Numbered from the stretch's first letter, positions 32,403 to 35,285 are shown. The stretch is DNA of 64,000 nucleotides from Escherichia coli (GCF_009931435.1 NZ_CP043414.1); one strand, 5' to 3'. The notes: a model not told the origin generated them from the sequence alone. Numbers and translations are program-made.

Positions 32403-33878
32403 ATGTCCAGTCAATATTTACGTATTTTTCAACAGCCACGTTCAGCCATATTGCTGATTCTGGGTTTTGCTTCCGGGCTACCGCTCGCCCTGACATCCGG
32501 CACCTTACAGGCCTGGATGACGGTCGAGAATATCGATCTTAAAACCATTGGTTTCTTCTCTCTGGTAGGCCAGGCTTACGTTTTTAAATTCCTCTGGTCA
32601 CCGCTGATGGATCGCTACACGCCCCCATTTTTCGGGCGGCGGCGCGGTTGGTTGCTCGCCACACAAATCCTGTTATTAGTCGCCATTGCGGCGATGGGTT
32701 TTCTCGAACCAGGCACCCAGCTCCGCTGGATGGCGGCACTGGCGGTGGTGATCGCTTTTTGCTCTGCCTCCCAGGATATTGTCTTCGATGCGTGGAAAAC
32801 CGATGTGCTCCCGGCAGAAGAGCGTGGTGCGGGCGCGGCAATCAGCGTGCTGGGTTACCGTTTAGGGATGCTGGTTTCCGGCGGCTTAGCCCTGTGGCTG
32901 GCAGATAAATGGCTGGGCTGGCAGGGCATGTACTGGTTGATGGCGGCGCTGTTGATCCCCTGTATTATCGCGACGTTACTTGCACCAGAACCAACCGACA
33001 CCGTTCCTGTGCCCAAAACGCTGGAACAAGCGGTTGTTGCACCTCTGCGCGATTTCTTTGGTCGCAATAATGCCTGGCTTATTTTGCTTCTTATCGTGCT
33101 GTATAAGCTGGGCGACGCATTCGCCATGAGCCTGACAACCACGTTTTTGATTCGCGGCGTCGGGTTTGATGCAGGTGAAGTAGGCGTGGTTAACAAAACG
33201 CTTGGCTTACTGGCGACCATTGTTGGCGCATTGTACGGTGGGATTTTGATGCAGCGCCTGTCACTGTTCCGGGCGCTGCTGATTTTCGGTATTTTACAAG
33301 GTGCGTCTAACGCCGGTTACTGGCTGCTGTCGATTACTGATAAGCATCTCTACAGCATGGGCGCAGCCGTCTTTTTCGAAAACCTCTGTGGCGGGATGGG
33401 TACATCAGCCTTTGTCGCGCTGTTAATGACGCTGTGTAATAAGTCATTTTCCGCTACTCAATTTGCCCTGCTCTCAGCGCTTTCTGCTGTAGGGCGAGTT
33501 TATGTCGGCCCCGTGGCGGGTTGGTTTGTTGAAGCACACGGCTGGTCGACATTCTATCTGTTCTCCGTCGCCGCTGCCGTACCAGGGCTTTTTTTGCTGC
33601 TGGTTTGTCGCCAGACGCTTGAATATACACGAGTAAATGACAACTTTATCTCCCGTACCGAATATCCGGCAGGTTATGCCTTTGCCATGTGGACATTGGC
33701 GGCGGGCGTCAGCCTGTTGGCCGTGTGGTTACTGCTGTTGACGATGGACGCGCTGGATTTGACGCACTTCTCTTTCCTGCCTGCGCTGCTGGAAGTCGGG
33801 GTTTTAGTCGCCCTTTCTGGTGTCGTGCTTGGTGGTTTACTGGATTATCTGGCGCTACGAAAAACGCATCTGACGTAA
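32403..33878 (+). CDS. ampG: Muropeptide (anhydromuropeptide) MFS permease AmpG (491 aa)
   Basis: ORF MSSQYLRIFQQPRSAILLILGFASGLPLALTSGTLQAWMTVENIDLKTIGFFSL... Confidence 0.97.
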   Translation: MSSQYLRIFQQPRSAILLILGFASGLPLALTSGTLQAWMTVENIDLKTIGFFSLVGQAYVFKFLWSPLMDRYTPPFFGRRRGWLLATQILLLVAIAAMGFLEPGTQLRWMAALAVVIAFCSASQDIVFDAWKTDVLPAEERGAGAAISVLGYRLGMLVSGGLALWLADKWLGWQGMYWLMAALLIPCIIATLLAPEPTDTVPVPKTLEQAVVAPLRDFFGRNNAWLILLLIVLYKLGDAFAMSLTTTFLIRGVGFDAGEVGVVNKTLGLLATIVGALYGGILMQRLSLFRALLIFGILQGASNAGYWLLSITDKHLYSMGAAVFFENLCGGMGTSAFVALLMTLCNKSFSATQFALLSALSAVGRVYVGPVAGWFVEAHGWSTFYLFSVAAAVPGLFLLLVCRQTLEYTRVNDNFISRTEYPAGYAFAMWTLAAGVSLLAVWLLLLTMDALDLTHFSFLPALLEVGVLVALSGVVLGGLLDYLALRKTHLT

Positions 33879-33889
33879 TCTGTAAATAT

Positions 33890-33934
33890 TATTTAGCCGT
33901 AGTAATCACTCGCCGTAATTATTACGGCTAAATA
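33890..33934. repeat. Inverted repeat / hairpin downstream of ampG
   Basis: tatttagccgta ... tacggctaaata, 12-bp perfect arms around a 21-nt spacer; no clear T-run. Confidence 0.4.
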
Positions 33935-34337
33935 AACATCAGCATCGCTTATTAATATTTGTTCTTTTGTGCGGCTTAGCGTCTGGAAATTATTGACGCC
34001 ATTTATGAATTCTATTTTTCTTACACGATTCAGCTAATGAGTCTTTATTTTCTCACTACCCAGTTGTCACCTTAATGATAATTATTTGTTAAATAATTGT
34101 TTTATTTTGTATTGGTTATACCAATTGCCCGCCCAAACTCCTTCTGCACTCCCCTTTCGTTATAACGCCCTTTTGCAACAGCTTCTTAAAATCAACTTGA
34201 TATGTTTTGCAACATATGTGACCTAATAGCCAAATCCAAGTAACAGGAATTTAATCATGTTTACAGTAATGTAACCTTCCCGTAAAATGCCCACACACTT
34301 TAAACGCCACCAGATCCCGTGGAATTGAGGTCGTTAA

Positions 34338-35285
<948 letters not shown>

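Follow-up and report, generated by a model that had tools for sequence, protein, structure and literature searches.

The region upstream of cyoABCDE, the operon of cytochrome bo3 ubiquinol oxidase, is an already well-studied promoter region of Escherichia coli. In K-12, three ArcA ChIP peaks have been described there, two of them at predicted sites, 'cyoA1' and 'cyoA3', and a third, 'cyoA2', at a place that lacks an ArcA box (Park et al. 2013). A PdhR box for cyoA has been reported as AATTGGTataACCAATg (Anzai et al. 2020, PMC7660256). Both ArcA and PdhR repress this promoter. The operon is also under Cra regulation (PMC5888115), and a passage of PMC8831704 that cites Guest et al. 2017 refers to CpxR binding sites in the cyo promoter region. 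We analysed the corresponding region in a stretch of 64,000 nucleotides of E. coli DNA (NZ_CP043414.1), called here the window. Judged by sequence identity with the mapped K-12 sites, about 33950-34337 is the known cyoABCDE control region. The remainder of the spacer between ampG and cyoA carries a long inverted repeat. We favour, with a probability of about 0.7, a two-part organization of the spacer, in which the cyoABCDE control region is preceded by a hairpin at the 3' end of the ampG mRNA.

The genes on both sides are those named in a preliminary description of this DNA, AmpG and CyoA being 99.4% and 99.7% identical to the K-12 proteins (tblastn). What had been described as some 460 bp of AT-rich non-coding DNA with several A/T tracts measures exactly 459 bp; its GC content is 35.5%, that of the flanking genes 51.9%. 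Of the 459-nt windows in the 64 kb, 0.24% are equally AT-rich, and runs of at least 8 nt made of A and T only occur at 21.8 per kb in the spacer and 2.6 per kb elsewhere, which is about eight times denser. Small ORFs in the spacer reach just 20-46 aa and have weak start codons; a spacer-encoded small protein was considered and rejected, conservation taking the form of discrete blocks and not of ORF-shaped stretches. The spacer is about 96% identical to that of K-12, with about 20 substitutions, and there is no difference from position 34228 to the cyoA ATG. An 801-nt query across the spacer matched 5424 of the 5426 complete E. coli genomes compared, with 95-99% identity and in every case between ampG and cyoA. 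K-12 coordinates (v3) equal 485948 minus the window position, and papers based on U00096.2 need +776; the offset was verified by placing the published PdhR box and ArcA sites on their sequences.

Table 1. Features of the ampG-cyoA locus, in window coordinates (positions such as -180 are relative to the cyo transcription start).
Feature	Position	Strand	Details and basis
ampG CDS (muropeptide MFS permease)	32403..33878	+	491 aa; ORF list, annotation in matching E. coli records
AT-rich ampG/cyoA spacer, 459 bp	33879..34337	.	K-12 NC_000913.3 451611..452069, same length
Stem-loop	33889..33935	+	arms 33889-33909 / 33915-33935, 5-nt loop; 21-nt arms, 90% complementarity
Footprint block, hairpin core	33897-33925		62-spacer alignment
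Conserved block ATATTTGTTCTTTTGTGCGG	33955..33974	.	62-spacer footprint
Conserved block TGGAAATTATTG	33984..33995	.	footprint; 11/14 to IclR box consensus, P 0.05 vs shuffles, a lead only
Cra-like site TCTTACACGATTCAGC	34019..34034	.	13/16 to GCTGAAWCGWTTCAGC; about -270; 0/200 shuffles as good
Upstream ArcA site, four direct repeats	34064..34106	+	-231..-189; 'cyoA3' of Park et al. 2013 except for 2 substitutions
Footprint block, ArcA/Fur region	34076-34092		62-spacer alignment
PdhR box ATTGGTTATACCAAT	34111..34125	.	12/12 to ATTGGTnnnACCAAT; about -180
Footprint block, PdhR box	34111-34128		62-spacer alignment
C-rich, G-poor sense-strand tract	34120..34179	+	25 C / 6 G in 60 nt; rut-like by composition (inference only)
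Footprint block TTTCGTTATAACG	34156-34166		62-spacer alignment
Perfect palindrome CGTTATAACG	34158..34167	.	about -134; deeply conserved; K-12 has TGTTATAACG
Footprint block	34209-34222		62-spacer alignment
Promoter-proximal ArcA site, three direct repeats	34257..34288	-	-38..-7, over the -35 and -10 hexamers; identical to 'cyoA1', Park et al. 2013
Sigma-70 core promoter cyoAp	34260..34288	+	-35 TTTACA 34260-34265, 17-nt spacer, -10 TAAAAT 34283-34288, 10/12 (promoter scan, single site)
cyoA 5' UTR, 43 nt	34295..34337	+	TSS placed at A34295; Shine-Dalgarno GAGG 34327-34330
cyoA CDS (cytochrome bo3 ubiquinol oxidase subunit II)	34338..35285	+	315 aa; ORF list, annotated records

The preliminary description expected sites for several global regulators upstream of cyoA, and both published ArcA sites and the PdhR box stand at the expected places, with a good Cra-like match and a sigma-70 promoter besides (Table 1). 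The transcription start, which we place at about A34295 by working back from the site positions relative to the TSS in Park et al. 2013, would leave a 43-nt leader. By coordinate mapping, the ArcA ChIP peaks of the two predicted sites fall inside these sites, the ChIP-seq peak of the upstream one lying at 34093, and the box-less 'cyoA2' peak falls at about 34172. The upstream ArcA site also scores 11/12 and 10/12 in a consensus scan, and the coordinate given by Anzai et al. 2020 for the PdhR box maps to 34118. Within the Cra-like site, the core CGATTCAGC (34026-34034) is conserved in the footprint described below. A CpxR-like consensus match (9/10) overlaps the -35 hexamer. In the same simple consensus scans, which are not PWMs, FNR and CRP reach 7/10 each, the level of chance, and a weak Fur-like match (13/19, P 0.23) at 34071-34089 overlaps the upstream ArcA site. 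Further downstream, the Term-seq supplement of Adams et al. 2021 lists 3' ends at K-12 451530/451528 in two conditions, corresponding to window 34418-34420, 80 nt into cyoA; lying about 123 nt from the cyo TSS, they could reflect premature termination or processing.

To follow the spacer beyond E. coli, 80 loci from other Enterobacteriaceae were collected with an AmpG query, of which 70 have cyoA after ampG within the DNA compared. Their spacers mostly measure 450-480 bp, with 35-42% GC. Once aligned, 62 of them display discrete, deeply conserved blocks amid sequence saturated with change (Table 1). Conserved blocks alternating with saturated stretches indicate a densely packed, conserved regulatory region, as the preliminary description had supposed. 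The segment 34240-34337, that is the core promoter and the whole leader, is nearly invariant in the 62 spacers and largely so in Erwinia and Pantoea too, and the cyoAp hexamers are unchanged across genera. Conservation there exceeds what synonymous sites would show, which suggests that the leader is constrained beyond its Shine-Dalgarno sequence.

Three of the deeply conserved elements have no assigned regulator: the blocks 33955-33974 and 33984-33995, which sit 300-340 bp upstream of the cyo TSS, and the palindrome CGTTATAACG at 34158. In addition, an exact 10-nt direct repeat, TTTTGCAACA, occurs at 34171-34180 and 34205-34214 with a spacing of 34 bp, each copy containing the palindrome TTGCAA; the second copy (34205-34214) is kept across genera, and this repeat too has no assigned factor. 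One E. coli strain of the comparison, the chicken-meat isolate EC529 (NZ_AP039439.1), carries the IS30-like element ISApl1 within its spacer (2018-2992 of that locus, about window 34088). The insertion falls approximately at the upstream ArcA/Fur site and should uncouple cyo from the distal regulatory sites.

We turn now to the inverted repeat next to ampG. It had been described as a perfect repeat of 12 bp at 33890..33934; its arms tatttagccgta (33890-33901) and tacggctaaata (33923-33934) are perfectly complementary indeed, and the perfect repeat really extends to 13 bp (33889-33901 / 33923-33935) within a stem of about 20 pairs, which includes one G.U pair (33902/33922) and one C/A mismatch (33907/33917). 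The stem-loop starts 10 nt beyond the ampG stop codon. As RNA, the plus strand has a folding energy of -23.3 kcal/mol, where shuffles average -6.7 (z -7.6, 0/200), and the minus strand one of -25.3 kcal/mol (z -5.9). The hairpin is single-copy: blastn against the 5426 E. coli genomes matches this locus alone, and the two hits per genome probably arise because a palindrome matches on either strand. A search of 33500-34700 against Rfam 15, with E values up to 10, gave no match at gathering score; three sub-threshold matches to miRNA precursors on the hairpin (15-16 bits, E 1.9-7.8) are noise. The literature search returned nothing relevant on the hairpin sequence. An alternative small hairpin, GCCGTAAT-T-ATTACGGC (33912-33928), was rejected, being specific to E. 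coli and not conserved in other genera.

AT-rich sequence is prone to short palindromes, and neither the literature search nor the Term-seq lists gave a direct experimental sign of function, so that the repeat could be thought a functionless product of chance. This is extremely improbable: among 1000 dinucleotide-preserving shuffles of the spacer, none contains a perfect inverted repeat of at least 13 bp, and the maximum, 12, is reached three times. Moreover the element is conserved across genera amid spacer positions saturated with change, and it shows compensatory changes. Conservation and covariation together effectively refute such an origin.

The repeat accompanies the spacer in the 5424 E. 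coli genomes. Of 73 Enterobacteriaceae spacers, 56 contain its core, CCGTTGTAATCAC-N4-CGTAATTATAACGG, with at most 8 of the 27 positions mismatched, including those of Salmonella, Citrobacter, Klebsiella, Raoultella, Enterobacter, Kluyvera, Yokenella and Trabulsiella; shuffled spacers almost never beat 9 mismatches. Thus neither of the two findings that could have spoken against the preliminary description, a spacer devoid of recognizable regulator sites or a repeat lost in relatives, was obtained. In the 56 orthologues, 76.4% of the cells of the 21-pair helix are paired, where shuffles give 69.1%; covariation scores 0.194 in the alignment and 0.099 in shuffles, none of 500 being as high, and 12 of the 21 pairs have changed on both sides. 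When the partner is shifted by 1-3 columns, pairing falls to 30-53%. The sequence thus forms a selected hairpin. Compensatory changes lie mostly in the outer stem, and in the inner stem E. coli shows a T-A to A-T swap relative to other genera. The inner 13 bp of each arm are otherwise almost invariant and the loop is free to vary; the G.U pair is fixed in 50 of the 56 orthologues and the C/A mismatch is found in 31.

Nearly invariant arms around 4-5 central nucleotides that vary freely are also the pattern of an operator. The palindrome would then act as double-stranded DNA, and its two half-sites of 13 bp (CCGTTrTAATyAC), some 390 bp ahead of the cyo TSS, would bind a dimeric or tetrameric factor; in a variant of this proposal, looping with the CGTTATAACG palindrome at about -134 may regulate cyo or ampG. 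The 8-mer CGTTATAA is indeed common to the CGTTATAACG palindrome and to the right arm that the hairpin has in other genera, and in many of these the two copies keep a spacing of about 240 bp. The CGTTATAACG palindrome also adjoins the box-less ArcA ChIP peak at about 34172. We nevertheless consider an operator rather unlikely. The outer stem changes between genera yet stays complementary, which an operator does not need; these compensatory changes imply selection for base pairing, and therefore favour a folded single strand over a duplex operator. The three ArcA ChIP peaks all lie away from the hairpin. Among 16 consensus motifs scanned (ArcA, FNR, CRP, Fur, Cra, PdhR, CpxR, IclR, TyrR and others), only a chance-level TyrR match (9/12, P 0.48) touches the left arm, and the best CpxR and ArcA matches fall outside the stem. 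The GTAAT repeats of the stem were also read as sites of CpxR, TyrR, ArcA or HexR type, and this was rejected: their spacing is 13 bp, not 10 or 11. Finally, the hairpin and the -134 palindrome do not strictly co-occur, Klebsiella/Raoultella-type loci carrying the hairpin only.

The distribution of the hairpin relative to the two genes bears on the same choice. Wherever no insertion intervenes, it begins 1-25 nt past the ampG stop. It is missing behind ampG in the four loci (L057, L067, L079 and L082) in which this gene lacks cyoA as its downstream neighbour, a loss that an operator for cyo would explain; in two of these (L057 and L067), canonical terminators follow ampG instead. On the other side, in Cronobacter sakazakii (locus L088, 1981-2500) a divergent gene of the HSP70 family lies upstream of cyoA, so that the ampG-cyoA adjacency is broken, and the hairpin is absent although the proximal cyo control region is retained, which argues against an operator. 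The same holds for Erwinia amylovora and Pantoea, where ampG and cyoA are adjacent and strong hairpins of unrelated sequence (-26.5 and -19.6 kcal/mol), without U-tract, occur at the same place, within about 30 nt of ampG. Phytobacter has another unrelated hairpin after ampG. Since unrelated hairpins recur after ampG, the feature seems to be a structural one whose sequence can be replaced, as expected of an element of the transcript end. This recurrence is the strongest argument for placing the hairpin at the end of the ampG transcript.

Some loci carry insertions between the ampG stop and the hairpin core, which leave the hairpin on the distal side. These loci are L009 and L026 (spacer of 725 bp), L013 (592 bp), and L044 and L076 (520 bp). 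By eye, the insertions of the first three look like ERIC/IRU repeats, e.g. GGGAATCCCCAGGAGCTTAC, and those of L044 and L076 are GC-rich palindromic sequence.

An RNA hairpin at the ampG 3' end would have to act on the ampG sense strand, that is the plus strand of the window. The plus-strand fold is more stable in 37 of 56 orthologues (mean -18.1 against -15.7 kcal/mol, Wilcoxon p 0.004, the sequences being related). Wobble pairs possible on the plus strand only number 107 against 69 on the minus strand only, or 57 against 38 without two nearly fixed positions. This asymmetry modestly favours the ampG sense strand, the sequences not being independent.

Alternatively, the hairpin might act on the minus strand or on both strands, where it would stop weak transcripts, antisense or divergent, initiated close to the cyo core promoter, and so shield ampG from them. 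Two weak K-12 plus-strand TSSs obtained by Cappable-seq (Ettwiller et al. 2016, PMC4782308) map to the minus strand of the window at 34250 and 34241. Divergent initiation at cyoAp, whose -35/-10 pair is nearly symmetrical, could account for them; their signals, 1.6-2.0, are just above threshold. Gordon et al. 2017 report a low-count RNase III-dependent RNA end at K-12 451896 (window 34052), under the label 'intergenic cyoA-ampG'. Such an end implies some transcription of the spacer and at least occasional duplex RNA from it, and hints at pairing of sense and antisense RNA. In this window the minus strand folds no less stably than the plus strand, and an A-run of at least 4 upstream of the hairpin, a U-run on the minus strand, is found in 18 of 57 orthologues, against 6 of 57 with a T-run of at least 4 within 12 nt downstream. 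Most orthologues nevertheless lack the minus-strand U-run too, and the A-richness upstream is due in part to the stop codon region. The plus strand folds better in most orthologues, and the unrelated hairpins that follow ampG in Erwinia, Pantoea and Phytobacter suggest a role linked to that gene; an antisense role is in our opinion unlikely.

We therefore return to the hairpin as a structure of the ampG transcript end. The preliminary description proposed that the repeat could be the ampG terminator or an operator. Of these, an RNA hairpin at the transcript end is favoured over the operator; the canonical intrinsic terminator is not retained. An intrinsic-terminator scan returned 0 sites, the stem is followed by AACATCAGCATC, which contains no U-tract, and the Term-seq lists of Adams et al. 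2021 contain no 3' end between K-12 451530 and 452393, hence none at the hairpin. These two positions are consecutive minus-strand entries of the lists, the first in cyoA and the second in ampG. The absence of an entry is a weak negative, because ampG is weakly expressed and the lists keep only dominant ends; the SMRT-Cappable-seq data have no ampG entry either. The missing U-tract and the missing Term-seq end nonetheless indicate that the hairpin is not a canonical intrinsic terminator.

The entry at K-12 452393 (window about 33555) is a very abundant 3' end inside ampG, 324 nt upstream of its stop codon. It defines an ORF-internal small RNA, 'ampG int', which was seen by northern blot and reported in Hfq RIL-seq chimeras with CyaR (Adams et al. 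2021).

On these grounds the hairpin is best read as an RNA stem-loop at the ampG 3' end, serving as terminator, insulator or stabiliser. We suppose that the yajG-ampG mRNA ends with the transcript of 33889..33935, folded into a stem-loop of about 20 pairs, which most likely defines or protects the 3' end of that mRNA and would limit read-through towards the cyo promoter. RNA polymerase is probably not released by classical intrinsic termination, since the U-tract is missing. Release might instead depend on Rho, which would load further downstream on untranslated C-rich RNA, exonucleases then trimming the transcript back to the hairpin; the composition of the tract at 34120-34179 would allow such loading on read-through RNA. 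The strand, the terminating or insulating role and the involvement of Rho are, all three, what we infer.

The invariance of the inner stem is not required by a purely structural stem. A stem with a fixed G.U pair and a C/A mismatch, present only where ampG and cyoA are adjacent and with CGTTATAA recurring elsewhere in the spacer, has led us to consider a specific recognition element, either a site bound by protein on DNA or RNA or a processing site for a double-strand RNase. We regard it as doubtful; if true, such an element could couple read-through from ampG, or a regulator, to cytochrome bo expression in Enterobacteriaceae.

How does this locus compare with known systems? The cyo part can be set directly against K-12 cyoAp, as the preliminary description suggested: locus, 459-bp length, ArcA sites, PdhR box, -35 and -10 hexamers and leader are the same. 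Among the substitutions that distinguish the window, 2 fall within the upstream ArcA site, one gives the -134 palindrome its perfect symmetry, and one renders the left arm of the hairpin fully Watson-Crick, where a C-to-T change in K-12 gives a G.U pair. With palindromic operators of dimeric factors the hairpin shares two conserved inverted 13-bp half-sites and a variable centre. It differs from them by a covarying flanking stem, by having no known factor or ChIP peak and by its distance of about 390 bp from the nearest mapped TSS.

Like intrinsic terminators, the ampG element is a stable stem-loop located 10 nt past the stop codon of an operon's last gene, with a promoter of the same direction after it. 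Unlike them, it has no U-tract and no mapped 3' end, and its long stem, of about 20 pairs, is AT-rich, only about 5 of the pairs being G-C. Terminator-prediction programs miss it because it lacks the U-tract, and it is a good example of a conserved 3' stem-loop of this kind that shows covariation. The protective stem-loops at the processed 3' ends of Rho-terminated transcripts (Dar and Sorek 2018, PMC6061677) differ from it in that they do not require the sequence conservation seen in the inner stem of the ampG hairpin. With these stem-loops the ampG element shares, in a likeness drawn from sequence features, a hairpin without U-tract placed after the coding region and, as in that Rho class, followed by untranslated C-rich, G-poor RNA.
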